DNA of 58,859 bases from an uncultured Candidatus Saccharibacteria bacterium. Its GTDB lineage: Bacteria > Patescibacteriota > Minisyncoccia > Phycocordibacterales > PALSA-1337. Below are positions 7,666 through 47,055 of this stretch, in pieces. The DNA is taken from positions 1 to 58,859 of the forward strand of contig CAZLCD010000002.1 of assembly GCA_964558375.1 (NCBI GenBank), read 5' to 3'. Both the position numbers and the translations under genes were made by a program. Position 1 is the first letter of the stretch; every line of letters begins with the position of its first letter. The notes under the pieces were generated by a model, which was not told where the DNA came from, made no database searches, and was given only the letters and a program-made list of their open reading frames with translations.

Positions 7666-7698
7666 CCCTACACAGATGGAAGTTTGTGTAGGGTTTTT
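7666..7698 (+). terminator. Rho-independent terminator of the 7328 gene
   Basis: CCCTACACA-gatggaagtt-TGTGTAGGG followed by TTTTT. Confidence 0.8.
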
Positions 7699-7751
7699 GT
7701 ATTCAAGATCACAAGTGAATATTGTAAATATAGGTGATATAATTAAGCCTA

Positions 7752-9772: not shown

Positions 9773-10300
9773 ATGAAGTCAAACCAAATAAAACTCACTC
9801 TAATCTTAATAATCATCTCCATATGTGTCTATCTGGCCTATCTAGGAAGCCCTGCATATTTAAATAGGGTACCTAAAATAAATGAAAAAGAAAGGTATAT
9901 GGTGACGAAAACCCTAGACGGAGATACCTTTGAAATTAAAATAGGGAAGAGAATAATGAAAGTTAGGATGATGGGAATAGATACGCCAGAGACTCTAGAT
10001 CCTAGAAAGCCGGTTCAATGTTATGGATATGAATCTTCAGAGAAAACCAAGGAATTGTTAAGTGGAAGATCGGTTTCTTTGAGACTCGACAAGACTCAAT
10101 CCGCTCTAGATAAATTTAAGCGACTTTTAGCTTATGTATATAGAGATGATGGAATATTTATAAATCAATACCTTTTAGAAAATGGTTATGCTAGAGAATA
10201 TACTTACAATAAAAAATACCAGAATCAAAAAGAATTTAAAGAAATAGAGAAAAAGGCTAGGGAAGAGAAGCGAGGGCTTTGGGGATCACTTTGTCTTTAG
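9773..10300 (+). CDS. Thermonuclease (staphylococcal nuclease-like) with N-terminal membrane anchor
   Basis: DGDTFEI...KVRMMGIDTPET and LLAYVY...N..L...GYA are SNase-fold motifs. The N-terminus is hydrophobic. Confidence 0.8.
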   Translation: MKSNQIKLTLILIIISICVYLAYLGSPAYLNRVPKINEKERYMVTKTLDGDTFEIKIGKRIMKVRMMGIDTPETLDPRKPVQCYGYESSEKTKELLSGRSVSLRLDKTQSALDKFKRLLAYVYRDDGIFINQYLLENGYAREYTYNKKYQNQKEFKEIEKKAREEKRGLWGSLCL

Positions 10301-11220
10301 CTTGCCTTCAAAAATAGATAAATGTCCTCAAGAGCCTTCACAGCATCTCCAGCGGCAATGTTGTTTTGATGATAAAGACCATCTGTACAATCTCCAGCAG
10401 CCCAGATACCGTCTACAGAAGCACGCTGATTTCTCGGATCCACTATCACTTGATTGTAAGGAGTAAGTTTTACCAAATCTTTTATAAAATATGTAGTAGG
10501 AATAGAACCTATTTCAACAAAAATCCCTCCAACAGCAAGCTCTATATCTGTATTAGTTTTTGAATCAGTATAAACAAAAGCATTTACAAATTTGTCGCCC
10601 TTTACCTCTTTAGAAATAGCATTAGTAATTATTTTAAAATTTGGATTTTTTGAGACAGCCGCAACTGTTACAGGATCTGCACGAAATTCGGCGCTTCTAT
10701 TTATAAGGGTAACGCTTTTGCAATATGCCAAAAGTTGTGCAGCGCTTTCGAAGGCAGCATTGCCACCACCGATAACAACAACATCTTGACCCGCAAAGAT
10801 AGGTCCATCACATGAAGCACAATAAGTAAGACCTTTATGTTCAAATGTTTCAGCACCTTTCGCTTCAAGTTTTTTTCTAAAACTTCCAGCAGTTACTAAT
10901 ACAGTTTTTGATTCATAACTTCCTTTTGAAGTTGAAATCTTGAAGCCATTGTCGATCTTCTCTACTTTTTCAACACTTTCACCGACATGAATGTCTACAG
11001 AGTCTTTGGCGTAAGCTCTCAGGTGATTCTCCAAACTTTTGGCAAATTCGACTCCAGGAATTTTGACTGTACCTATCCAATTTTCAATACCTTCAGAAAC
11101 TGTACTCTGACTGTTCCAGTCTTTGGTTATAAAAAGAGTTTTGAGTTCTTTGCGAGCAGCATAAACTCCAGCAGCAACGCCAGCAGGTCCACCACCTATG
11201 ATTGTTAAGTCGTATATCAT
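10297..11220 (-). CDS. trxB: Thioredoxin-disulfide reductase
   Basis: FAD motif IIGGGPAGVAAGVYAAR, redox-active CASCDG, NADPH motif VVVIGGGNAAFESA and the C-terminal GIWAAGDC motif. Confidence 0.85.
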   Translation of the reverse strand: MIYDLTIIGGGPAGVAAGVYAARKELKTLFITKDWNSQSTVSEGIENWIGTVKIPGVEFAKSLENHLRAYAKDSVDIHVGESVEKVEKIDNGFKISTSKGSYESKTVLVTAGSFRKKLEAKGAETFEHKGLTYCASCDGPIFAGQDVVVIGGGNAAFESAAQLLAYCKSVTLINRSAEFRADPVTVAAVSKNPNFKIITNAISKEVKGDKFVNAFVYTDSKTNTDIELAVGGIFVEIGSIPTTYFIKDLVKLTPYNQVIVDPRNQRASVDGIWAAGDCTDGLYHQNNIAAGDAVKALEDIYLFLKAS

Positions 11221-11338
11221 TACTATTTATAATATCATAAAATCTGATAAAATCCTTGCTGTCGCAGAAGATTTTTTTTCTTCAACATGTTTCAGAAAAA
11301 AAGCTTCCGCGCCACGGATTTCATCTAGATTTTATAGC

Positions 11339-12535
11339 TTACTTCAACTTAGACCTCCTTAAAAAAGCTGGCACAGCACCCCAATCATCGTCATCATTAT
11401 TGTCGTTCTTCGATTCTTTCTTTTCTTCACGAATTGGAACAGGAATATCCTTTACAGATAAAGGTATAGATGTATTGACTGGCTTTGGCTTGGTTTCGTT
11501 GACTTGATTGAAGCTTTGTTTATTCTCAGGATTATTATTGGATGCGATCTTATTTTCTCCAGTTGGGATAATGCCCTCAGGGAAGCCTGCAGCGATAACA
11601 GTGATCTTTACTTCATTTTTCTTAAGCTTATCATCACGAACAGTACCAAAAATAACTTTTGCATTTGGATCTACAGACTCAGTAATAACCTTTGCAGCGT
11701 CTTGGATTTCGAACATTGTTAGGTCTTCACCTCCAGCGATAGAGAAGAGAACACCCCTTGCTCCATTTATAGAAACATCAAGAAGAGGAGAGTTGATAGC
11801 GAGCTTTGCGGCCTCTATGGCTCTATTTTCGCCAGAAGCAGAACCGATACCCATGAGAGCAGAGCCAGCACTTTCCATAACAGTTCTTATGTCTGCAAAG
11901 TCTATGTTGATGATACCGGGGGTAGTGATGAGGTCTGAAATACCTTCTACTGCTTGGCGAAGTATCTCATCACAGATAGAGAAAGCATTTCTTACTGTGG
12001 TGTTTTTGTCTATAGTTGTAAGAAGGCGATCATTAGGAATAACGATAATAGCATCTACTTCTTTCCTAAGTTCTTCGAGGCCTATATCGGCGATCTTTGA
12101 CCTTTGTTTACCTTCAAAAAAGAAAGGTTTGGTGACTACAGCGACTGTCAGGGCTCCTAGTTCCTTTGCAGTACGAGCTACTATAGGGCTAGCACCGCTT
12201 CCTGTACCTCCACCGAGTCCACAGGCCACAAAGACCATATCAGCACCCTTTAAGGCCTCCTGAACTTCTTCTTTGGTTTCTTCTACGGCTCTCTTACCCA
12301 TCTCAGGGTTCATGCCAGTACCGAGACCTCTAGTTAGGTTTTTACCGATATGTATTCTTTTTTTAGCAAGAGAGTGATGCAAATCTTGAGCATCTGTGTT
12401 TATGGAAATAAAATCAACACCTTTGACCTTGGAGGTAATCATATGGTTGATGGCATTCTTTCCGGAACCTCCCACTCCGATAACTTTTATTCGCGCGAAG
12501 GCTTCAATGTCAGGTGTAATGTTGGGCATGGTCAA
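11339..12535 (-). CDS. ftsZ: Cell division protein FtsZ
   Basis: IKVIGVGGSGKNAINHM, the tubulin signature GLGGGTGSGASP, and the C-terminal conserved peptide DDWGAVPAFLRR. Confidence 0.95.
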   Translation of the reverse strand: MTMPNITPDIEAFARIKVIGVGGSGKNAINHMITSKVKGVDFISINTDAQDLHHSLAKKRIHIGKNLTRGLGTGMNPEMGKRAVEETKEEVQEALKGADMVFVACGLGGGTGSGASPIVARTAKELGALTVAVVTKPFFFEGKQRSKIADIGLEELRKEVDAIIVIPNDRLLTTIDKNTTVRNAFSICDEILRQAVEGISDLITTPGIINIDFADIRTVMESAGSALMGIGSASGENRAIEAAKLAINSPLLDVSINGARGVLFSIAGGEDLTMFEIQDAAKVITESVDPNAKVIFGTVRDDKLKKNEVKITVIAAGFPEGIIPTGENKIASNNNPENKQSFNQVNETKPKPVNTSIPLSVKDIPVPIREEKKESKNDNNDDDDWGAVPAFLRRSKLK

Positions 12536-12604
12536 ATCTTATCAGATAACAAGAATTAGTCAAAAAAGGAAATAAAATAGAAATAAGAGGGAATTATCGC
12601 AAAT

Positions 12605-13810
12605 CTACGGTAGAAATTGTTTGAGCCATAAGAGTATTTTTTTCCATACTGTACCCAAAATCACCCCGCTGTTATTGATGGGCATGTCTTGATCTGCATG
12701 TGTGCCGAAGACACAAAGGCCATAGGCCACTGCCCATACAGAATCTCTATAACTTTGTTTTTCTTGAAGGCCAAGATTGACCATACCTATCCTTGAAGGT
12801 AGTCTGAGAGACTGCTTCGCTGCCTCTTCGATATTGGAAAGTCCTGCTCCACCACCTGTTATCACAATACCAGCAGGTAAAAGTCCATCTCTGCCGATTT
12901 TCTTTAAATGAGTCTCTATTAATTCAAAAATATCCGAAAGACGCGCAGAAATAACTTCCTCCAACTTTTTTCTAGGATATGAACTTCCTGTGATGGCACC
13001 GATCTTGATCTGCTCAGCTTCTTCAAGATTAACCTTCAATCCCAAAGCAATGTCATTTGTAATGTCTGTAGAGCCTATAGGGAAGATTTCTATAGACACA
13101 GGAATATTGTTTTCAAAAACAGAAGCGGAGACAGTTTCGGCACCGATATTTACAAGAACGCAACCAGCAATCTTTTGGCTTTTGGTTAAAGTTACCAAAC
13201 TTCCGGCTATAGGTGAGGCCATAACATCTTGGACACTAATACCAGCTTCTTCGACAGACTGGATAATGTCATTGAGGTGATGTTCTAGACAAGTAATGTA
13301 TAGAGTTTTTATTTCAAGCTTACTACCCTTCATCCCTTCAGGCTTTCCGAGGGCTAGCTTGCCGTCAATTTTATAATGAACAGGGATAGAGTGAATGATT
13401 TTTCTATTTAGCGAGGCACTATTTGGAATATCTTTCTCACATTGTTCTTGAAGCTTTTTTATGTCTAGTGAAGTGATCTCTAGATCTGCTTTGGAAATAA
13501 TAATAGAGCTTGTAGAATGTATACCACTAAGTCCAATACCTCCTATAGATACGAAAGCCCTTTTAACCTTTACTCCCGCACGTTCCTCGGCTTCCTTAAC
13601 CGCACGTTTGATACTTTCTGTTACATCACTGACATTGACTATATAACCATGACGCAAGCCTTTGGATTCTGACATGCCGATACCAATGATCTTTGGGTGA
13701 TTTCTGAATTCATTTTTCAAATTGTCCTTATTTCTTTCTTGAGAATCAGCAATAACCACTTTAATATGGTTAGTGCCTATGTCTATACCAGTGATAATTG
13801 TTCGTGACAT
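12605..13810 (-). CDS. ftsA: Cell division protein FtsA
   Basis: Actin-like ATPase motifs GIDIGTNHIKVV, VNIGAETVS and GIVITGGGAGL. It lies immediately upstream of ftsZ. Confidence 0.9.
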   Translation of the reverse strand: MSRTIITGIDIGTNHIKVVIADSQERNKDNLKNEFRNHPKIIGIGMSESKGLRHGYIVNVSDVTESIKRAVKEAEERAGVKVKRAFVSIGGIGLSGIHSTSSIIISKADLEITSLDIKKLQEQCEKDIPNSASLNRKIIHSIPVHYKIDGKLALGKPEGMKGSKLEIKTLYITCLEHHLNDIIQSVEEAGISVQDVMASPIAGSLVTLTKSQKIAGCVLVNIGAETVSASVFENNIPVSIEIFPIGSTDITNDIALGLKVNLEEAEQIKIGAITGSSYPRKKLEEVISARLSDIFELIETHLKKIGRDGLLPAGIVITGGGAGLSNIEEAAKQSLRLPSRIGMVNLGLQEKQSYRDSVWAVAYGLCVFGTHADQDMPINNSGVILGTVWKKILLWLKQFLP

Positions 13811-23190: not shown

Positions 23191-23643
23191 CTATTTTACC
23201 ATCTCCTCAACCACTGCCTTTACATCTGCGCCATCAGCTTTACCTTTAAGCTCCTTCATAAGAGTGCCTATGAACTGACCCATTTTAGTTTTATCAATAG
23301 CACCACCAGACGCTAGTTTGGCATCAACAACCTTTCGTATCTCATCTCTACTCATAGTAACAGGCAAGAAAACTTCAAGTATAACAAGCTCGGCTTTTTC
23401 TTTATCAACAAGATCCTTTCGACCACCTTTTTCAAACTGCTCTATGGAATCCCGATGTTGTTTTACGCTTCTTTTAATTAGAGTTAATGCGCCTTCATCA
23501 TCGATAAAGGTCTCCGCACTGCCTTTGGCTATAAGCTCATTGGAAAAGAGAGCGGTTAAGCTTCTTAAGGTATCAAGCTTAATAGAATCCTTGGCTCGCA
23601 TAGCGTCTACTATTTGTTTTTTGATATTTTCATGTATTGTCAT
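23191..23643 (-). CDS. GatB/YqeY domain protein
   Basis: I...I.DAMRAKD...L.TLR.L is the typical YqeY N-terminus. 150 aa. Confidence 0.75.
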   Translation of the reverse strand: MTIHENIKKQIVDAMRAKDSIKLDTLRSLTALFSNELIAKGSAETFIDDEGALTLIKRSVKQHRDSIEQFEKGGRKDLVDKEKAELVILEVFLPVTMSRDEIRKVVDAKLASGGAIDKTKMGQFIGTLMKELKGKADGADVKAVVEEMVK

Positions 23644-23663
23644 ATGCTGTTATAATAGCATAT

Positions 23664-24722
23664 ATGAATACACTTATCATTATCCTTATTATTCTTGTCT
23701 TGATTGCAATTATCATTATGGTTTTTGCTTTCCTATATCGTCCACAGGCAAGTCAGTCTAAAGACAGTGATGTCGGATTAAAATTAATCTTAGAGCAGAT
23801 AAATGAGCTCAACCGCACAGTAGACACCAAGATAGGTGAGAGTGCAAAACATCTCAGAGAATCAATGCACAACCAGCTATCAGAATCTTCGAAGATGATA
23901 AGAGATGTGACGGAGGGTCTAACTAAGCTCGATGAGACGAACAGGCAAGTGATCTCCTTTGCTGATCAGCTACAATCTCTGAGTGATATTCTGAAGAATC
24001 CAAAACATAGAGGGATACTCGGTGAATACTATCTAGAAACTCTTCTTCAAAATGTATTGGCACCAACACAATATAAGATGCAATATACTTTCAACAACGG
24101 CGAGATTGTCGATGCTGTAGTTTTTGTGAAAGACAAGATCATTCCTATAGATTCCAAGTTCTCTCTTGAGAACTACAATAAGCTTGTCGAAGAAAGAAAT
24201 CCTATAGAGAAAGAGAAATTAGAAAAATCTTTTGTAAATGATCTCAAGCTTCGCATACAAGAGACCGCAAAATATATTCGTGCAGGAGAAAATACTATGG
24301 ATTTTGCTTTTATGTTCATACCCCATGAAGCTATTTACTATGATCTATTGGTCAATAAAATAGGCGCTGTAACAGAAGAGACAGACAACCTCATACAGCG
24401 CGCGGCAAACAAATACAAAGTGATTATCGTTTCTCCCACCTCTTTCTTAGCTTACCTACAAACTGTTCTACAAGGTCTCAAGGCTATGCAGATAGAAGAG
24501 ACTGCAAAAGACGTTATAAAGAGAGTAAGCGATCTCGGAAATCATCTAAAAAAGTATGAAGAATATCATGAAAAACTAGGCTCATCTCTTTCGACAGTAG
24601 TGAACCATTACAATAATTCTGGAAAGGAACTGAAGAAGATAGACAAAGACGTTTTGAAGATTACAGGCTCGAGTCCGGCTATAGAAGTGAATGTTATTGA
24701 CCAGCCAGAAGAGATAGTGTAG
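23664..24722 (+). CDS. rmuC: DNA recombination protein RmuC
   Basis: An N-terminal TM segment, a long coiled-coil region, then the RmuC nuclease-like core (GEIVDAVVFV.DKIIPIDSKF, FAFMFIPHEAIY). I chose the start at MNTLII to avoid overlapping the divergent gene. Confidence 0.8.
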   Translation: MNTLIIILIILVLIAIIIMVFAFLYRPQASQSKDSDVGLKLILEQINELNRTVDTKIGESAKHLRESMHNQLSESSKMIRDVTEGLTKLDETNRQVISFADQLQSLSDILKNPKHRGILGEYYLETLLQNVLAPTQYKMQYTFNNGEIVDAVVFVKDKIIPIDSKFSLENYNKLVEERNPIEKEKLEKSFVNDLKLRIQETAKYIRAGENTMDFAFMFIPHEAIYYDLLVNKIGAVTEETDNLIQRAANKYKVIIVSPTSFLAYLQTVLQGLKAMQIEETAKDVIKRVSDLGNHLKKYEEYHEKLGSSLSTVVNHYNNSGKELKKIDKDVLKITGSSPAIEVNVIDQPEEIV

Positions 24723-25676: not shown

Positions 25677-25723
25677 GCAATCTCAAAAAGAGAAAGGTAA
25701 GAAATGAAATAAAATCAATGATA

Positions 25724-25752
25724 GGGGTGTCCGGACGGATACCCCTTTTTTT
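25724..25752 (+). terminator. Rho-independent terminator
   Basis: GGGGTGTCCGGACGGATACCCC followed by TTTTTTT. Confidence 0.7.
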
Positions 25753-25757
25753 CTATC

Positions 25758-26366
25758 CTAAACCCTCTCCCTATTTTTCAATGCATTCTTAATGGTATCT
25801 GTATCAGAATATTCAAGCTCTGTTCCTGTAGAAAGTCCACGACCTAGTACAGAAATTGTGAGATTCTGGCTTGGAAATTTCTCTTTAAGGTAGTTTGAGA
25901 TAAAGTCAGCAGTATGCTCTCCCTCAGCATTGGCATTTAGAGATAGGATTATTTCTTTAAATACTCCACTCTTTATTTTTTCAAAAAGTTCGTACAAACG
26001 CACCTTTTTTTCAGGTTCCTTATCAAGGATGGGGATAGTACCACCGAGGATGAAGTAATGCCCATTATAAAATTTACTTTTTTCTATTGCTTCAAAATCT
26101 ACATCACGAGAAACTATCATTAATTTTTCTGTATCTCTGTTTTTATCAGAACAGATATAACATTTGCTACTATTGCCATCTTGATAAAATCGAAAACAAC
26201 TTGTGCAAATCTTTATACTTTTTTTGATATCCAAGATTAGTCTAGCGATTTCTTCTAGGTAACTAGCATTGCGGGTCAATAAGAAATAAACGAACCTACG
26301 TGCTTGCCTAGGGCCGATACCAGGGAATTCTCTGAAATATTCTGTTAGTTTAGAAATCGGATCCAT
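25758..26366 (-). CDS. recR: Recombination protein RecR
   Basis: LPGIGPRQARR-type HhH (FPGIGPRQARRF), a C4 zinc finger CTSC...CYIC and a Toprim region. Starting at MDPISKL leaves a 17-nt overlap with dnaB. Confidence 0.9.
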   Translation of the reverse strand: MDPISKLTEYFREFPGIGPRQARRFVYFLLTRNASYLEEIARLILDIKKSIKICTSCFRFYQDGNSSKCYICSDKNRDTEKLMIVSRDVDFEAIEKSKFYNGHYFILGGTIPILDKEPEKKVRLYELFEKIKSGVFKEIILSLNANAEGEHTADFISNYLKEKFPSQNLTISVLGRGLSTGTELEYSDTDTIKNALKNRERV

Positions 26367-35566: not shown

Positions 35567-36706
35567 CTATTCATGTTTCAAGGCAATTTCAAGTATAACA
35601 TTGGCAATTTTCTTGGCAGCGTCAATATGGCTAAATTCCTTGGCTCCTGTGATCATACGTTCACGAATATGCTGATTATTTATAACTCTGTCAATCTCGG
35701 AGATTAATATGTGAGAACTAAGATTATGTTCTTCTATCACTATGCAAGCCCCGTTTCTAGAGTATGAAAAAGCGTTTTTTGTCTGATCATGACTCACATT
35801 TTTCGACAAAGGAATGATTATTGAAGGTATACCCCATGCAGATATTTCAAAAATAGTTGATCCTGCTCTAGATACGACAATACTAGAAACTCCAGCAGAC
35901 ATTCTGATCGCCAAATCATTTAAATAATCAAAAGGATGGTATCGATAAGCATTTGCATTTCCTTTTAGAACAATGCCCGCAGTATCTTTTATCAAATTGA
36001 AATTGGCACGACCGGTCTGATGAATAACCTGATACTTATTGACCAATTCTCCTATACTATCTAGCACTACATCATTTATAAACTGCGAACCCTGAGAACC
36101 ACCCATGATAAGTATCACTGGAGTTTTCTCTTCAAGGTTAAGGAATTCATTGGCGCCATTGCTAAGTGGTTGAATAATTTCTTTTCGAATGGGATTGCCG
36201 GTAAAAGCCACACTGTTTGGATCTTTGTTGATCTTTCTAAAGTATTCGCCAGATTCTGGATATGAAACTGCGATTTTCTTTGCAAACTTACCTGCCCAAG
36301 CGTTAACCCTTCCCGGAGCGCTATCTGATTCATGGATGATTACAGGTATTCGAAAGATCTTTGCTGCCAAAACTACTGGAAAACTAGCATATCCTCCTTT
36401 GGAAAAAACAACATCCGGATAAAGGCTATAGACTTTAACAAGAGCATAGATCACTCCTGTAAGAGTTTTAAATAAATCTGTGAAGTTTAAAATCGAAAAG
36501 TATCGGCGTATCTTCCCAGCTGGTACATGGATAAATTCTATTTCACTATCGAAGAGCGCGCGAGGGTTGTACTTTGAAGGAGCCATGTAATAGAGCTTGG
36601 GTGGTAAAATTTTATTTTCTCTGGCATTGTCATATAGAGCCTGAGCAACGGCAATGATTGGATAAAAGTGTCCCCCTGTACCTCCTCCTGTAAAAAGTAT
36701 TTTCAT
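35567..36706 (-). CDS. murG: Undecaprenyldiphospho-muramoylpentapeptide beta-N-acetylglucosaminyltransferase MurG
   Basis: MKILFTGGGTGGHFYPIIAVA and the C-terminal VSRAGSTIFEISAWGIPSIIIP. Confidence 0.9.
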   Translation of the reverse strand: MKILFTGGGTGGHFYPIIAVAQALYDNARENKILPPKLYYMAPSKYNPRALFDSEIEFIHVPAGKIRRYFSILNFTDLFKTLTGVIYALVKVYSLYPDVVFSKGGYASFPVVLAAKIFRIPVIIHESDSAPGRVNAWAGKFAKKIAVSYPESGEYFRKINKDPNSVAFTGNPIRKEIIQPLSNGANEFLNLEEKTPVILIMGGSQGSQFINDVVLDSIGELVNKYQVIHQTGRANFNLIKDTAGIVLKGNANAYRYHPFDYLNDLAIRMSAGVSSIVVSRAGSTIFEISAWGIPSIIIPLSKNVSHDQTKNAFSYSRNGACIVIEEHNLSSHILISEIDRVINNQHIRERMITGAKEFSHIDAAKKIANVILEIALKHE

Positions 36707-36739
36707 CTGTTTTGTTTTATGATTATTTTATATTTTATG

Positions 36740-37831
36740 CTATTTTTGATATTTGGAAATATTTGCAATGATTCCTGTGGCAGCCAAGGTAATAATAAGT
36801 GCTGTGCCTCCATGACTCACAAAAAGCAAAGGCATACCGGACAATGGTATGAGACCTAGCATTGAAGATATGTTCATAAACGATTCTACAATGATAAGTA
36901 TAGCAATTCCTATTGCTACAAGTCCACCAAAGCTATCGACAGACATGGAAGCGATTTTAATTGACCTAATAAAAAATAATAGGAATAATATAATCAAAAC
37001 AACACTCCCTATAAAACCGAACTCCTCTGCAGTCACAGCAAAAATCGAATCTCCTATCGGTTCTGGTAAATAATTAAATTTCTGAACACTTTGACCAAAT
37101 CCTCTACCAGTTATCTGTCCTGAACCTATGGCAATAAGCGATTGTTGTATCTGGTAACTTGAACCTTGAGAATTGCCGCTGCTATTTATAAATGTCATTA
37201 TTCTCTGCTTTGCATAAGGTCGTACAGAGATCACAATACCGAGAGCAAGAATCATAAGTAAACATAAACCGGCAATATGCTTTACCTTTGCTCCAGCGAT
37301 CATAAGCATGATCAGTCCCGTACCTGCTATCACAACCAAAGTATCCGTATCAGATTGAAACAAAAGTAAAGTACCTAGAATACCGATAATTACTATATAA
37401 GGAACAATGCCGTATTTTAATGTACCAACCTTGTCTTTAATACCAGATAACCACGCGCCGAAATATATAATAAAAGCGATTTTGAGAAATTCGGAAGGTT
37501 GAAATGTTATAAATTTTAAATCAATCCACCTCGACGCGCCTCCATGATCCAGAGAAAGAAACGGTATAAATAATAGGAGATTAATAAAAATAGATCCTAG
37601 TAAAATATATAAAGCGTTTTTTCTTAAAATTTTGTAGTGAACTTTGGACATTACAATAAAAGCAATGATACCGAGAACAAGCCCGATACTTTGCTTTGAG
37701 GCCACGGACTGAAAACTCGCTCCATCTCGAGCAAGTAAACCCAAAGAAGCCGATGAAAAAACGAAAAAACCAGTAAAGGCCAGTAAAATTACACATATTA
37801 AAAACAATTTGTCAGTTTTGCGATCCTTCAT
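36740..37831 (-). CDS. ftsW: SEDS-family peptidoglycan polymerase FtsW/RodA
   Basis: Ten-TM profile, FQPSEFLKIA and LPLSGMPLLFVSHGGTALI. It lies adjacent to murG. Confidence 0.8.
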   Translation of the reverse strand: MKDRKTDKLFLICVILLAFTGFFVFSSASLGLLARDGASFQSVASKQSIGLVLGIIAFIVMSKVHYKILRKNALYILLGSIFINLLLFIPFLSLDHGGASRWIDLKFITFQPSEFLKIAFIIYFGAWLSGIKDKVGTLKYGIVPYIVIIGILGTLLLFQSDTDTLVVIAGTGLIMLMIAGAKVKHIAGLCLLMILALGIVISVRPYAKQRIMTFINSSGNSQGSSYQIQQSLIAIGSGQITGRGFGQSVQKFNYLPEPIGDSIFAVTAEEFGFIGSVVLIILFLLFFIRSIKIASMSVDSFGGLVAIGIAILIIVESFMNISSMLGLIPLSGMPLLFVSHGGTALIITLAATGIIANISKYQK

Positions 37832-43279: not shown

Positions 43280-43300
43280 TGGCACTCGAGGAGATTCGAA
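43280..43300 (-). repeat. Displaced copy of the tRNA-Ala 3' end, marking the far boundary of the tRNA-Ala island
   Basis: The minus strand reads TTCGAATCTCCTCGAGTGCCA, against TTCGAATCTCCTCGAGTCCA in the tRNA-Ala T-loop and acceptor strand. The difference is one extra G. Confidence 0.75.
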
Positions 43301-43352: not shown

Positions 43353-43799
43353 TCAGAAGATAAACTTGAAATACTTATCGAACCAAGCGACAAATGACCC
43401 AGTTGTAGAATTATCAGCATTGCCACTTTGTATGGATACTAAATATTTCCCTTTTGTGTAAATATATTGGTTGGAATCCTGAAGGTAACTAACGTATTTT
43501 TTATTGATAACTATCTTTCCTGGATTATGGTCATTAATCCAATCTTCCTCAGCTTTTTGTGCTTCAATCTCATTTTCAAATGTAGCAATGTCGGCAAAAA
43601 AAGAGAAATCATTTTTAGTGTACCTCTGCGATCTTTCCGCTACTGGCTGGTTTACATTGTTTTTCCAATGCCAATCCGGTGGACTTAAACGACTATCTAA
43701 TGTCATTGTGTAAAGTTTGGATCCAGAAAAGCTTTCGTAAGCAAAATACCCTCCAACAACCAAAAGAATAACGACTACTAAGATTAATATTTTTTTCAT
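43353..43799 (-). CDS. Hypothetical exported or membrane-anchored protein
   Basis: 148 aa with an N-terminal hydrophobic segment. Confidence 0.45.
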   Translation of the reverse strand: MKKILILVVVILLVVGGYFAYESFSGSKLYTMTLDSRLSPPDWHWKNNVNQPVAERSQRYTKNDFSFFADIATFENEIEAQKAEEDWINDHNPGKIVINKKYVSYLQDSNQYIYTKGKYLVSIQSGNADNSTTGSFVAWFDKYFKFIF

Positions 43800-43892: not shown

Positions 43893-44708
43893 TTAAAGTT
43901 TGGCGAACGGGGTGTTCAGAGGAACTTGGTTTTCCACTTTTCCTCCCACCCTTTGCTCGATTATTGGCCTGGGAGCTGGTTCGCGAATGTACTCAGAATA
44001 TTTGAGAGCTGGATCGAGATTTTGCGCGCGAGCTCTTTCCTCATATTCTTTCCATAGTTCGTAATCGAACGTCTCGCAAAGTTCGAAGACTTGACCATCA
44101 ACGCAGCCTCCGCCGTGACGCATGCGCGTATCGAGGAAGTAATTGAGATCACGAGCAAGTAGTAGCATTGCCATATTACATAGGCGATTACTACTTTCAC
44201 CTTGCGAAATGTGACGACTGATACAGAGTCTTCGCCTGTCCTCGCTCGAGAAGTTTTTCTTCCCCGACAATACGAACTCTGCAAAAAGTTTCTCTGACTC
44301 AGTACAACGTGCCCACTGCCGGAAATGCTGTCCCTTTTTACCAGGTTCGGTAATCCCAACAATCCAGGTGCCACGAGTAGGCGGATTCATTGCAAACTGT
44401 TTAGTCATAATACCGAGACCAGTGTAGCATTCCAGTTGATGATGGTGACCCTTGGAATCAAAATGAATATCACCTGTGGTCGTGTGAGCGAAACCAAAAT
44501 AAAAGTGGTACGATTTTTCCACCCTATGCCATTGTTCAGATGACATTTCATAACGGCATTCTATGAAGTCAGGTTCATCATCCCAGTGCGAGATGCCTCG
44601 GGCGTCTGTGAAATGGAAGAGTTTTTCATCTTTGACGACTGGGTTTGTGACCCGCGCAAAGGTGAGTACTTCGAGGGAACTAACCAGGTTCATCATTTTT
44701 TCATTCAT
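43893..44708 (-). CDS. Hypothetical protein, visibly GC-richer than the backbone, in a stand-alone transcription unit
   Basis: A 271-aa ORF that is Cys/His/Trp-rich with no recognised motif. It has a consensus promoter upstream and the terminator CCCCTC...GAGGGG + T run (about 43838-43866) downstream. Confidence 0.55.
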   Translation of the reverse strand: MNEKMMNLVSSLEVLTFARVTNPVVKDEKLFHFTDARGISHWDDEPDFIECRYEMSSEQWHRVEKSYHFYFGFAHTTTGDIHFDSKGHHHQLECYTGLGIMTKQFAMNPPTRGTWIVGITEPGKKGQHFRQWARCTESEKLFAEFVLSGKKNFSSEDRRRLCISRHISQGESSNRLCNMAMLLLARDLNYFLDTRMRHGGGCVDGQVFELCETFDYELWKEYEERARAQNLDPALKYSEYIREPAPRPIIEQRVGGKVENQVPLNTPFAKL

Positions 44709-44813: not shown

Positions 44814-44933
44814 ATTAAGACAATATATCTAATTAGACTTAAATCTCAATCTATGTAAATATTGCCTTTGAACTGATTTTTAAGAATCACCGTGCCCCGA
44901 CGGAATCGGGTATTTGGTCTTCGATATAATGTT

Positions 44934-45782
44934 ATGAATAGATTATTGGTAATTGTACTAACTTTCCTATTTGTTACTATTACTTATTCGCAAAACCTAT
45001 TTATCGCTAGTGGCGAAGATGGTTTGATCTACAAGTATACCCCGGACGGAGATAGGAGCATCTTCGCATCGGGACTATACTCTCCACAAGGGTTAGCTTT
45101 TGATAGCGCCGGTAATTTAATTGTGGCTGATGGTCATGGCACCATCTTTAAATACACATCGAACGGAGAAAGAAGCACTTTCGCCCAGGGACTGGACTCT
45201 CCAGCAGGGTTGGTCTATAACAGTTTGGGTAACATAATCATGGGACAGTGGTATGGTGGTATTTATGAATACAGTCTCGATGGAACACAGAGGATGCCTG
45301 TTTCTGAACAGATCAATCCTTACGGACTTGCACTTGGTATTACTGGTAACCTATTTGTAGCAAGTCGTTATGAAGGTATTGTGTATGAGTATTCAAAAGA
45401 CTGGGCAAGAAGCGTTTATGTCATTGGACTGAGTAACCCCACAGGACTAACTTTTGATAGCACGGGTAATATGTATGTTGGTGATTACTCTGGCTCACAA
45501 ATAGCCAAGATTACACCCGAGGGAGTGAAGAGTACCTTTGCATCAGGTTTGCATGATGTCATCGGACTAGCTTTCAATGGCACAGGCAATTTGTTTGCAG
45601 TGAGTAGAGGAGATAATAGCGTGTTTGAGTATACGCCGGACGGAGTAAGGAGTACGTTCGCATCGGGTCTATTGCAACCAAGCTATTTAGTTTTTGAACC
45701 AGTATCAGTGCCTGAACCAATCTCAATCACTACCTGTGGTTTAGCTTTGACCCTCTTCGCCTTATGGAGGAAACGAGAATAA
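44934..45782 (+). CDS. Beta-propeller (NHL/SMP-30-like) repeat protein with signal peptide and C-terminal PEP-CTERM-like sorting motif
   Basis: About six to seven repeats of roughly 40 aa (..Y.PDG.RS.FASGL..P.GLAFDS.GNL.VA). Starting at ATG 44934 gives the signal-like MNRLLVIVLTFLFVTITYSQ. The C-terminus is VPEP + hydrophobic stretch + WRKRE. Confidence 0.7.
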   Translation: MNRLLVIVLTFLFVTITYSQNLFIASGEDGLIYKYTPDGDRSIFASGLYSPQGLAFDSAGNLIVADGHGTIFKYTSNGERSTFAQGLDSPAGLVYNSLGNIIMGQWYGGIYEYSLDGTQRMPVSEQINPYGLALGITGNLFVASRYEGIVYEYSKDWARSVYVIGLSNPTGLTFDSTGNMYVGDYSGSQIAKITPEGVKSTFASGLHDVIGLAFNGTGNLFAVSRGDNSVFEYTPDGVRSTFASGLLQPSYLVFEPVSVPEPISITTCGLALTLFALWRKRE

Positions 45783-45858: not shown

Positions 45859-46009
45859 TGGACTCGAAGAGATTCGGTCACTAGTCCTCGCCTACTGGCT
45901 CGGCTATCGACCCCGCCTCCTTCGCCTTCGCTCAGTCCGGCTTTCTCATCTATTCTCAAGATCCAGCCATAGAAAAAAGACCAGAATTGTCTGGTCTTTT
46001 TTCATGATG
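45859..46009 (-). repeat. Mini-element downstream of tRNA-Ala: terminator hairpin + GC-rich box + GACCGA + tRNA-Ala 3'-end copy
   Basis: In tRNA orientation the order is: tRNA, then terminator AAAAAAGACCAGA-caat-TCTGGTCTTTTTT (45973-46002). Next comes the GC box GAGAAAGCCGGACTGAGCGAAGGCGAAGGAGGCGGGGTCG (45908-45947), which has 3 mismatches to the tRNA-Glu copies. It ends with GACCGAATCTCTTCGAGTCCA (45859-45879). Confidence 0.8.
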
Positions 46010-46082
46010 TGGACTCGAGGAGATTCGAACTCCTGACCTTTCGCTTGCAAAGCGATTGCTCTACCAACTGAGCTACGAGCCC
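46010..46082 (-). tRNA. tRNA-Ala (anticodon UGC), no encoded CCA
   Basis: The reverse complement folds as GGGCTCG-TA-GCTC-AGTTGGTA-GAGC-A-ATCGC-TTTGCAA-GCGAA-AGGTC-AGGAG-TTCGAAT-CTCCT-CGAGTCC-A. The G3:U70 Ala identity pair is present. Confidence 0.9.
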
Positions 46083-46137: not shown

Positions 46138-47055
46138 TTATTTCCTACTTAATGCAAGCTGTATTATATGGTCAAGAAAATGTGACATCGAGCTACCCAC
46201 AGCGTGCAAGGACTTCGGTATCAAAGATTCTTCTGTAAGACTAGGTAAGGTATTGGTTTCCAGAATAAAAATTCCTCGGACAGGATGGATAATAAAATCT
46301 GAATTGGAATAGTGCCTTAAGCCCAAAATTTTATGAGCTTCTATTGAAAGCCTTTCCAACTCTTTTTTCTCATGATCGGAAAAATTTCCAGGGACTAAAT
46401 GTGTAAGTGTTTCTATGGCTGGCAAAGCATAATGCCTATGTGTTCTGAAATCATCTATCACCCCACAGCTTGCCTCTTTACCTTTAATAAATTCTTCAAC
46501 CAAAAGATCATTATCTTTATCGAACATCGTCTCCAGAACTTTCGATAGAGAATTCCAATCTTTAACCAAATGCAAACCAATAGATGAACCGCCCATCAAA
46601 GGCTTAATAATGATAGGCAAAGAAAAAGATTGGAATATCTGTTCATGGATTTTATTGAGATCCTTATCCTTTTTAATAACTTTTGATAGAGGAGTTTTGA
46701 GCTTGTGATCTCGATAAATTTTCTTGGACATTTCTTTATTCATACCCACCGCCGAAGCGAAAGATGTAGAACCGGTAAATGGAATGCCATGAGATTCTAA
46801 AATATGCTGAACCTTGCCATCTTCACCAAAATGTCCGTGAAGTGCATTAAAAACCACATCAACATGAGTCAAAACATCGTGAGGCAATGTAGCCACGCCA
46901 TTCATATGCCATATTCCCCGTCGATCGATAAGTACATCTCTTGCATGATATTTATCATGAGAAAGATTATTAAGAACATAAGTTCCAGTTTTTAATGAAA
47001 CCTCATATTCACTACTTGGACCACCGCGAAGAACGGCTACTCTAGTTCTGTGCAT
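46138..47055 (-). CDS. ddl: D-alanine--D-alanine ligase
   Basis: VAVLRGGPSSEYEVSL..G, ALHGHFGEDG..Q and the ATP-grasp core. Confidence 0.85.
   Translation of the reverse strand: MHRTRVAVLRGGPSSEYEVSLKTGTYVLNNLSHDKYHARDVLIDRRGIWHMNGVATLPHDVLTHVDVVFNALHGHFGEDGKVQHILESHGIPFTGSTSFASAVGMNKEMSKKIYRDHKLKTPLSKVIKKDKDLNKIHEQIFQSFSLPIIIKPLMGGSSIGLHLVKDWNSLSKVLETMFDKDNDLLVEEFIKGKEASCGVIDDFRTHRHYALPAIETLTHLVPGNFSDHEKKELERLSIEAHKILGLRHYSNSDFIIHPVRGIFILETNTLPSLTEESLIPKSLHAVGSSMSHFLDHIIQLALSRK

Follow-up and report, generated by a model that had tools for sequence, protein, structure and literature searches.

Short tRNA-anchored units with a covarying single-strand fold and no recombinase gene in Patescibacteria: candidate miniature integrative islets

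Genomic islands residing in tRNA and tmRNA genes (tDNA islands) are catalogued by Islander (PMC4383910), and tycheposon arrays have been described as well (bioRxiv 10.1101/2020.12.28.424599). Stacked arrivals and leftover partial tRNAs are on record for both (PMC4383910; bioRxiv 10.1101/2020.12.28.424599). Here we describe related units in a 58,859-nt contig of an uncultured Candidatus Saccharibacteria bacterium (GenBank assembly GCA_964558375.1, contig CAZLCD010000002.1, positions 1 to 58,859; hereafter the window) and in further Patescibacteria. Each complete unit carries a structured module of ~85 nt, composed of the segments P1a, P2 and P3; the last part of the target gene, from about C56, is designated X. 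To our knowledge, bacteria of the Candidate Phyla Radiation (CPR) have tiny genomes in which few mobile elements have been described. On balance, we take the units to be integrative islets of Patescibacteria that are miniature and non-autonomous and have a conserved end acting in cis as a folded single strand, and our best reading places them in the T-loop region of stable-RNA genes, namely tRNA genes, tmRNA genes and 5S rRNA copies. As in tDNA islands, the target is split and then regenerated by sequence of the element, the displaced 3′ fragment lies at the far end and tmRNA also serves as a target; as in tDNA islands and tycheposons, units arriving one after another build up arrays that contain decayed remnants and cargo of accessory or defence type. 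In contrast to tDNA islands, the islets contain no integrase or hallmark gene, are as short as ~130 nt, also hit 5S rRNA copies, and have as their far end a conserved single-strand fold that holds an inverted copy of the 3′ part of the target. We class the element as a variant of the tDNA island that is miniature, lacks an integrase and has at its end a conserved single-strand fold with an inverted target copy.

Two tRNA genes of the window, each called by ARAGORN and Rfam, are followed by such units: tRNA-Glu(UUC) at 1091-1162 (+) and tRNA-Ala(UGC) at 46009-46082 (-). A first-pass annotation had recognised both genes and had quoted the 40-nt GC-rich boxes behind them correctly; these differ at 3 of 40 positions, with 0.00 matches expected in shuffled sequence. 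A 40-mer search of the window (up to three mismatches; 0.00 expected in shuffles) returned three copies, the third being exact at 3992-4031 (+). The two loci of the annotation thus stand, but a third full copy (3978-4080, +) and a truncated fourth (~1946-1977) had been overlooked. A covariance model (R1) built from the alignment described below recovered exactly the three full copies in the window with 102-108 bits. Its next-best match (18 bits; 25681-25768, +) is a GC-rich terminator-like hairpin, GGGGTGTCCGGACGGATACCCC, with a T-run and not a copy. The three full modules have a G+C content of 51-55% against 37.5% for the window.

The first islet begins with X of tRNA-Glu (18 nt, 1145-1162, +, from C56), which forms its left end and pairs with P1a. 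Module copy 1 (1201-1286, +; R1 108.3 bits over 1201-1310; minimum free energy (MFE) fold z = -5.3) consists of P1a (1201-1214), the junction GAGAAA (1215-1220), the GC-box hairpin P2 (1221-1247) and P3 (1249-1286), ending in GTGAC-C. Copy 2 (3978-4063, +; R1 108 bits; fold z = -6.4) comprises P1a 3978-3991, P2 3998-4024 and P3 4026-4063. Copy 3 on the opposite strand (45876-45965, -; R1 102.1 bits; fold z = -2.6) comprises P1a 45948-45965, the same junction GAGAAA, P2 45915-45941 and P3 45876-45913, and X of tRNA-Ala occupies 46010-46027. The hairpin with T-tract that had been noted after each tRNA is present in every case: the scan caught those of the Glu array, a bidirectional terminator-like hairpin belonging to the first islet (1169-1198, +; fold z = -5.4) and its second copy (3946-3975, +), and missed that of the Ala islet (45973-46002, -), a stretch unflagged by the consensus scan which folds with -19.7 kcal/mol (z = -7.4).

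GACCGA and a copy of the tRNA 3′ end do follow the box, as the annotation had it, with corrections in detail. At 1283-1303, where GACCGA plus CTCTCTGTGGGGTCA had been given, the site reads CTCTCTTTGGGAACA with three mismatches; the displaced tRNA-Glu 3′ fragment of copy 1 (1286-1303, +) is the degenerate CGACTCTCTTTGGGAACA, also with three mismatches. Exact fragments lie instead at 1978-1995 (+), right after the truncated module, and at 4063-4080 (+), the outermost boundary of the Glu array. The displaced Ala fragment (45859-45876, -) is a copy of the tRNA end with one mismatch (CTCTT versus CTCCT). Positions 3937-4071 form a perfect 135-nt repeat of 1160-1294 (100% identity) and the two sequences diverge beyond it, the proximal Glu copy ending in the degenerate tRNA end CTCTCTTTGGGAACA and the distal copy in the exact CTCTCTGTGGGGTCA.

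Comparison of syntenic loci in WWE3 genomes revealed occupied and unoccupied sites with precise boundaries. Here and below, L numbers denote the sequences collected for comparison. L079 carries a unit at tRNA-Leu(GAG) but none at tRNA-Lys(CUU), and L109 shows the reverse occupancy. At tRNA-Leu(GAG), the clearest pair, the flank beyond the downstream fragment of the filled locus is identical to the one that follows the tRNA of the empty locus; this flank identity defines the inserted unit as spacer, P1a, P2, P3 and a tRNA copy from about position 56 to CCA. The live tRNA-Lys of L109 has the T-arm GTGGG/TTCAAAT/CCCAC, whereas CGAAT-CCCTC, the allele seen in the uninserted relative, is retained in the downstream fragment; P1a of L109 (GGTGGGAT) is complementary to the live tRNA-Lys and not to the fragment. 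Judged from the sequence, this allele pattern is the mark of an element arriving with a 3′ part of its own, by which the original one was displaced. As in tDNA islands, the target gene is regenerated and its displaced 3′ fragment recurs as a direct repeat at the far end, and the filled and empty sites together with the L109 allele back the earlier proposal that the layout results from integration of an element in the T-loop region.

P1a repeats X in inverted orientation and remains complementary to the live tRNA even beside a decayed fragment: at loci of this kind, P1a matched the live tRNA at 19 of 19 positions in L063 and L156, at 16 in L154 and at 15 in L074. No P1a-like inverted copy was found at tRNAs without a module. 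Duplication of the target site by staggered cuts was considered and rejected: in the clean pair of filled and empty sites the duplicated stretch stops precisely where the tRNA ends, and the spacer does not recur in the window flanks. The label of a miniature inverted-repeat transposable element (MITE), which had been suggested, does not fit either. The units lack element-borne terminal inverted repeats and a short target duplication; their sole inverted repeat is that between P1a and the 3′ part of the tRNA, which varies with the target, and the duplication is the ~20-nt gene end.

The Ala islet of the window offers an orthologous series. The adjacency of the D-alanine ligase gene Ddl and tRNA-Ala(UGC) is conserved in many Patescibacteria, the closest Ddl relatives being only ~59% identical. 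The window, L189 and L190 hold the full unit at this locus; L199 retains terminator and P1a, L196 has an internally deleted form, and six other lineages lack the unit. Copy 3 has its ortholog in L189 with the same P3 and a compensatory P2 inner stem. Gain and decay at Ddl-tRNA-Ala therefore fit a mobile element better than an RNA gene of the host. The contigs L184, L185, L191, L193, L195 and L198 of metagenome-assembled genomes (MAGs) end a few to a few hundred bases from this locus, which suggests that the repeated module and the tRNA fragments break short-read assemblies there. Such contig ends right at the locus would speak for chimeric joins at a repeat, and the annotation had named an assembly chimera of one repeat as a possible source of the pattern. 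This explanation can practically be dismissed: the same architecture, with locus-specific tRNA matches, occurs in ~100 independent contigs, including a complete WWE3 genome (CP006914.1, L044) and contigs of >500 kb.

The box had been taken as a free-standing 40-mer; it is a hairpin inside a larger base-paired fold. Every copy folded showed the same three helices. P1 is formed by the 5′ flank (P1a) and a tRNA-like strand; P2 is the GC box, with the pattern GCC [GGA] CY [GA] GC-GAAG-GC [GA] RG [GA] GGC; P3 runs from GGGTCG to YGTGACC and contains a bulged A and an A-rich tetraloop. Folding X, the terminator and P1a together yields a single long hairpin ahead of P2 and P3 (z = -8.3, DNA parameters), and the MFE structure takes the form of a three-way fold that includes the downstream fragment. 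In an alignment of 31 copies, pairing was found in 83% of cells versus 69% in shuffles, both sides had changed in 25 of 35 pairs, and the covariation score was 0.41 compared to 0.16 in shuffles, which ignore relatedness, and ~0.1 in slid controls, which correct for it. Compensatory changes affect 12 of the 16 P3 pairs. The inner stem of P2 is fully compensated in diverged copies, which were found by the covariance model (GGACAC/GUGUCC, AGCUGC/GCAGCU, GGCUAC/GUAGCC and GGCGAC/GUCGCC), and these keep the GGA/GA internal loop. The pairs of P3 are Watson-Crick in 400 cases, G-U in 45 and A-C in 2. Since G-U is far above A-C, one strand folds, namely the tRNA-sense strand. A T-stem-like alternative pairing of GGGG with the fragment was rejected, as inspection of the alignment revealed no consistent covariation.

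These data bear on the proposal that the box is a double-stranded arm-binding site, and with it on the explanation that the units are decayed leftovers of integrase-encoding islands or prophages, in which the box would be the attP arm that binds integrase and accessory proteins. In favour of this origin, tDNA islands are defined by a regenerated gene with a displaced fragment (PMC4383910), tycheposons show tandem accretion and remnants (bioRxiv 10.1101/2020.12.28.424599), and the window contains a bare fragment without a module at 43281-43300. A duplex protein-binding site, however, would not be expected to show compensation in 12 of the 16 P3 pairs and in the inner stem of P2, nor 45 G-U against 2 A-C pairs. 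Moreover, an integrase stands beside the module in 0 of ~110 loci, and the viral and phage collections searched contain no copy. We regard this origin as very unlikely, and the arm-binding site as a misfit.

Conserved secondary structure with compensatory changes is equally a hallmark of structured non-coding RNA genes. The module might then mainly be such a gene of ~110 nt with a three-way junction, whose product would act in regulation, bind protein or be processed by tRNA enzymes via its tRNA-like end helix, its site at island ends beside tRNA genes being secondary. The strong covariation, a conserved G-U pair, tandem G-A pairs and conserved loops agree with this, as do an orientation that is always that of the upstream RNA gene and the MFE structure, which is the three-way fold with the downstream fragment. 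In addition, a free-standing copy in L035 lies right behind a sigma-70 promoter matching at 12 of 12 positions. This copy (100-350) adjoins a cluster of DnaA-box-like motifs (TTATCCACA variants), possibly a replication origin region. Yet L035 is the 1 copy with a recognisable promoter among ~80 examined; promoter scores upstream of the other copies equal the background, and in most copies the terminator, located between tRNA and module, directly precedes P1a and leaves no space for a promoter. Terminator position and lack of a general promoter signal thus disfavour RNA as the form in which the strand folds. Decay affects what would be the 3′ strand of the end helix, whereas P1a keeps in step with the live tRNA. 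This also weakens the idea of a structured RNA with a tRNA-like minihelix at its 3′ end, which the annotation had offered as an alternative: the structure stands, but the downstream tRNA copy decays freely as P1a stays complementary to the live tRNA upstream. Since the orthologous locus is empty or decayed in many lineages, the host has no need of the module there, and about half of the neighbouring tRNAs lack it. An RNA gene as the main identity is unlikely in our judgement.

Searches of Rfam 15 returned no family for the module, tRNA-like RNAs, ribozymes, group II intron domains V-VI, 5S, SRP and Y RNA included, neither at gathering thresholds nor, for two copies, at E-values up to 10, in agreement with the annotation, which had been unable to place the box in a known RNA family. 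Gathering matches elsewhere in the searched sequences were confined to tRNA, rRNA, tmRNA and a group I intron; the intron lies within the 23S rRNA gene of a CPR contig (L159 6947-7145, -; 59 bits). Likenesses noticed by eye (the loop C region of 5S rRNA, P4 of RNase P, hammerhead, box C/D, group II domains V-VI and a dif-like arm) were discarded, being unsupported by models and based on features that are lost in diverged copies.

Beyond the window, ~100 further module copies were found in Patescibacteria genomes and metagenomes. A 20-mer of the box had 112 matches in the representative-genome collection, ~48 of them in Patescibacteria and the rest chance matches in high-GC genomes, and a metagenome scan added 56 loci; most genomes sampled are MAGs. 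Carriers belong to Saccharibacteria, Paceibacteria, Kaiser-, Vogel- and Taylorbacteria and WWE3, the last with one complete genome. In the genome scan, ~33 of 51 true copies had a same-strand tRNA 20-250 nt upstream, representing at least 11 isoacceptor (amino-acid) families, and in most cases the last 16 nt of the tRNA recur with 16 of 16 matches ~68 nt into the element; metagenome loci are alike. All tRNA-linked copies share the orientation of the tRNA, and a copy of the gene's 3′ end follows most of them. The expectation that the box stands just 3′ of a tRNA and before the end of that tRNA in related genomes accordingly holds for most copies, and others are found at tmRNA and 5S rRNA copies. 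In L062 the module lies 1.4 kb 3′ of the tmRNA gene, with cargo in between and the tmRNA 3′ end behind it. In L003, L149/L159 and L158 it lies in decayed extra 5S rRNA copies just 3′ of the true 5S gene. The same module is absent from about half of neighbouring tRNAs. IMG/VR viral contigs, INPHARED phages and PLSDB plasmids contained no true copy, and literature searches by topic and by sequence string returned no description of the element.

Several side observations accompanied this survey. The decayed 5S copies (L003 3240-3790, -; L149 478-790; L158 100-420) hold one inverted and one direct module at the same two sites, and the interrupted second-5S arrangement of CPR rRNA operons is conserved between different lineages. 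In L054 (5560-5900), L098 (-, ~1650-1900) and L014 (6251-6330), an intact tRNA gene is closely preceded by a partial copy of a tRNA 5′ part that is truncated at its 3′ side; a module is inserted after the D-arm (GGTAGAG|TGAG...) of these partial copies in L054 and L098 and there is none in L014. In the spacer between tRNA-Ser and the first element of L061 (-, ~7690-7735), a hairpin recalls a hammerhead core (CUGAUGAG...CGAA...GUC) without stem III; it is probably a plain hairpin.

Some copies are nested or carry an extra 5′ hairpin that replaces P1. Nested copies (L064, L016/L017, L037), tandem units (L054) and the inverted and direct copies at fixed sites of the 5S pseudogene recall a small insertion element that would move by single-strand transposition of the IS200/IS605 type, as palindrome-associated transposable elements (PATEs) do, or through an RNA intermediate and reverse transcription; it would target stable-RNA loops and produce the partial gene copies as by-products. 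Hairpins at both ends, the fixed 3′ end GTGAC and a P1a that spans the tRNA from T-loop to mature 3′ end, like a primer-binding site, fit such an element. Nevertheless, no TnpA, TnpB or reverse transcriptase gene was found nearby, no TnpA (Y1) or TnpB/IscB gene, as would accompany at least some copies of a PATE or an omega-RNA, lies near any copy examined despite the hairpins and the fixed end GTGAC, and Rfam detected no group II intron match to the module. The single orientation of all tRNA-linked copies also speaks against it, and the allele swap fits recombination with a pre-formed X. We thus give this explanation little credence.

The islet reading leads to a proposed mechanism. Filled and empty sites, the allele swap and the tandem arrays with cargo show how the integrated island is laid out: it comprises, in order, X, which completes the live gene, the spacer or terminator with cargo, P1a, P2, and P3 with GTGAC at its end, behind which lies the original 3′ part of the gene as the displaced fragment; later arrivals would stack into arrays. 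Since P1a repeats the tRNA 3′ part of the element in inverted orientation, one strand could rebuild a target-identical duplex beside the junction. P1a-P2-P3 is the putative cis-acting site: in the folded single strand, P1a and X may rebuild the target duplex beside the crossover, which would lie at GTT|CGA of the gene and GAC|CGA of the element. The islets would be moved in trans by a recombinase whose gene resides at another place in the genome. The annotation's view that the units carry no recombinase in or near them and are non-autonomous is borne out by the searches. Pfam revealed no recombinase, integrase, transposase or reverse transcriptase in the window ORFs (open reading frames) tested and in the cargo-bearing islets examined, the encoded tyrosine or serine integrase of tDNA islands being among the genes missing from these ORFs and this cargo. 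No integrase lies beside the module in any of ~110 loci, and clustering of the ORFs of 50 loci in a census of neighbouring genes yielded no recurrent family.

The absence of a recombinase gene from the ORFs and islets searched counts against the islet reading, and further points have to be set beside it. Mobility in trans is pure inference, and the reading does not account for the acquisition of an X and a P1a matched to more than 12 different tRNAs. No autonomous 'master' element was seen, and the viral, phage and plasmid collections searched contained no copy. Some copies, among them nested ones and those in both orientations in the 5S pseudogene, resemble plain insertions at which no gene was regenerated, and the reading does not account for their origin either. 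A conserved G-U pair and tandem G-A pairs would be more usual in RNA, and the L035 copy stands directly behind its TTGACA-18-TATAAT promoter. Finally, the box itself served as the probe in sampling, and its sequence conservation is inflated accordingly.

A bolder possibility, which we hold to be doubtful, is that the module on its own serves as an attachment site or guide in the form of a folded single strand of DNA or RNA. With its inverted copy of the 3′ part of the target it would rebuild the target duplex or pair with it, and cassettes lacking an integrase could then enter the T-loop of any stable-RNA gene. If true, CPR bacteria would have a cassette system of their own, anchored at tRNA genes, integron-like or RNA-guided, and served by a putative recombinase. 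Among known guides, those of TIGR-Tas are RNAs of 36 nt with non-complementary 9-nt spacers (PMC12045711); identity with these tandem-spacer guides was rejected, because RNA length and spacers mismatch the module (PMC12045711).

The islets can further be compared with several classes of small or folded elements. Cis-mobilizable elements (CIMEs), known from work on integrative and conjugative elements (ICEs) of Streptococcus thermophilus, are kilobases long and derive from an identifiable ICE with a known integrase. Both CIMEs and islets are bounded by att sites, lack recombination genes, and would be moved in trans and grow by accretion; the islets differ in that no parent element or recombinase was identified and that the att-proximal end is a structured module. 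Integron attC and attP(+) of phage CTX are folded single-strand recombination sites in which inverted copies pair in one strand and rebuild a target-like duplex. The islets share with them a strand-specific fold, conservation of structure above sequence in parts, promoterless cargo 5′ of the site and tandem arrays at one anchor, and by analogy would rebuild the duplex in a similar way. They differ from both by the tRNA T-loop as anchor and by two extra conserved hairpins, and no IntI or dif/Xer context was seen. Nor do they contain an integron attC in the strict sense: the junction is GTGAC|CGA, the T-loop reads GTTCGA, there is no RYYYAAC/GTTRRRY pair and no integrase was found. Structured bacterial repeats such as Rickettsia palindromic elements, REP/BIME, BOX and Correia elements occur in tens to hundreds of copies, have no fixed link to tRNA 3′ ends and do not regenerate a target. 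Like the islets, they are short, GC-rich relative to the genome and hairpin-forming, and occur in RNA genes or their copies, nested or decayed in places; the islets, in contrast, are present in few copies per genome and in one fixed orientation and position.

The window illustrates how islets accumulate. Cargo per islet spans 0 to at least 4 kb, the smallest units measuring ~130 nt. In the Glu array, tRNA-Glu is followed by terminator, module and degenerate fragment, and then by a cargo ORF of 202 aa without a Pfam match (1351-1959, +), whose 3′ end overlaps the truncated module, and by the exact fragment. This remnant (~1946-1977, +) consists of the P2 end fused to the distal and 3′ part of P3, and its P3 3′ half is identical to a variant in L006, L020 and L069. 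A weak promoter-like site precedes the 202-aa ORF (1295-1324, +), combining TTGGGA of the degenerate Glu fragment with TATGAT 18 nt downstream. Farther outward follow a cargo ORF of 559 aa with a Schlafen AlbA_2 domain (2134-3813, +; Pfam E = 1.7e-11), which has no close relative among representative genomes, a decayed tRNA-Glu remnant (3917-3939, +; an anticodon-arm-like piece and ...GGCTCA) before the second terminator, module copy 2 and its exact fragment. Comparable tRNA remnants precede terminator and module in L029 and L034. The Ala locus has the order tRNA-Ala, terminator-module-fragment, an NHL-repeat ORF (44892-45782), two unknown ORFs (43893-44708 and 43353-43799) and a second, bare tRNA-Ala fragment, TTCGAATCTCCTCGAGTGCC (43281-43300, -), with no module ahead; this fragment marks the outer boundary of the ~2.6-kb Ala islet, within which the three ORFs lie. 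Elsewhere, cargo includes an SNase nuclease and a SocA/Panacea (SocA_Panacea) antitoxin.

Apart from the islets, the window contains housekeeping genes of division and the cell wall (10297-13810, 35567-37831 and 46138-47055), namely FtsZ, FtsA, MurG, FtsW and Ddl, as well as a thioredoxin-reductase-like ORF and RmuC (23637-24722). At 1-55 (-), the 5′ part of a further tRNA gene is cut by the window edge (Rfam tRNA, 34.7 bits, 3′-truncated).

The module family would show how CPR bacteria gain and lose accessory genes at tRNA, tmRNA and 5S loci by elements that do not carry recombinase genes, the cargo seen comprising nuclease, antitoxin and Schlafen-type domains. Its conserved fold provides a ready marker for finding islets and probably accounts for breaks of MAG assemblies at such loci, and the displaced fragments preserve older tRNA alleles. 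If the fold proves to be an active recombination site or a guide, it would represent a new way of targeting tRNA genes.

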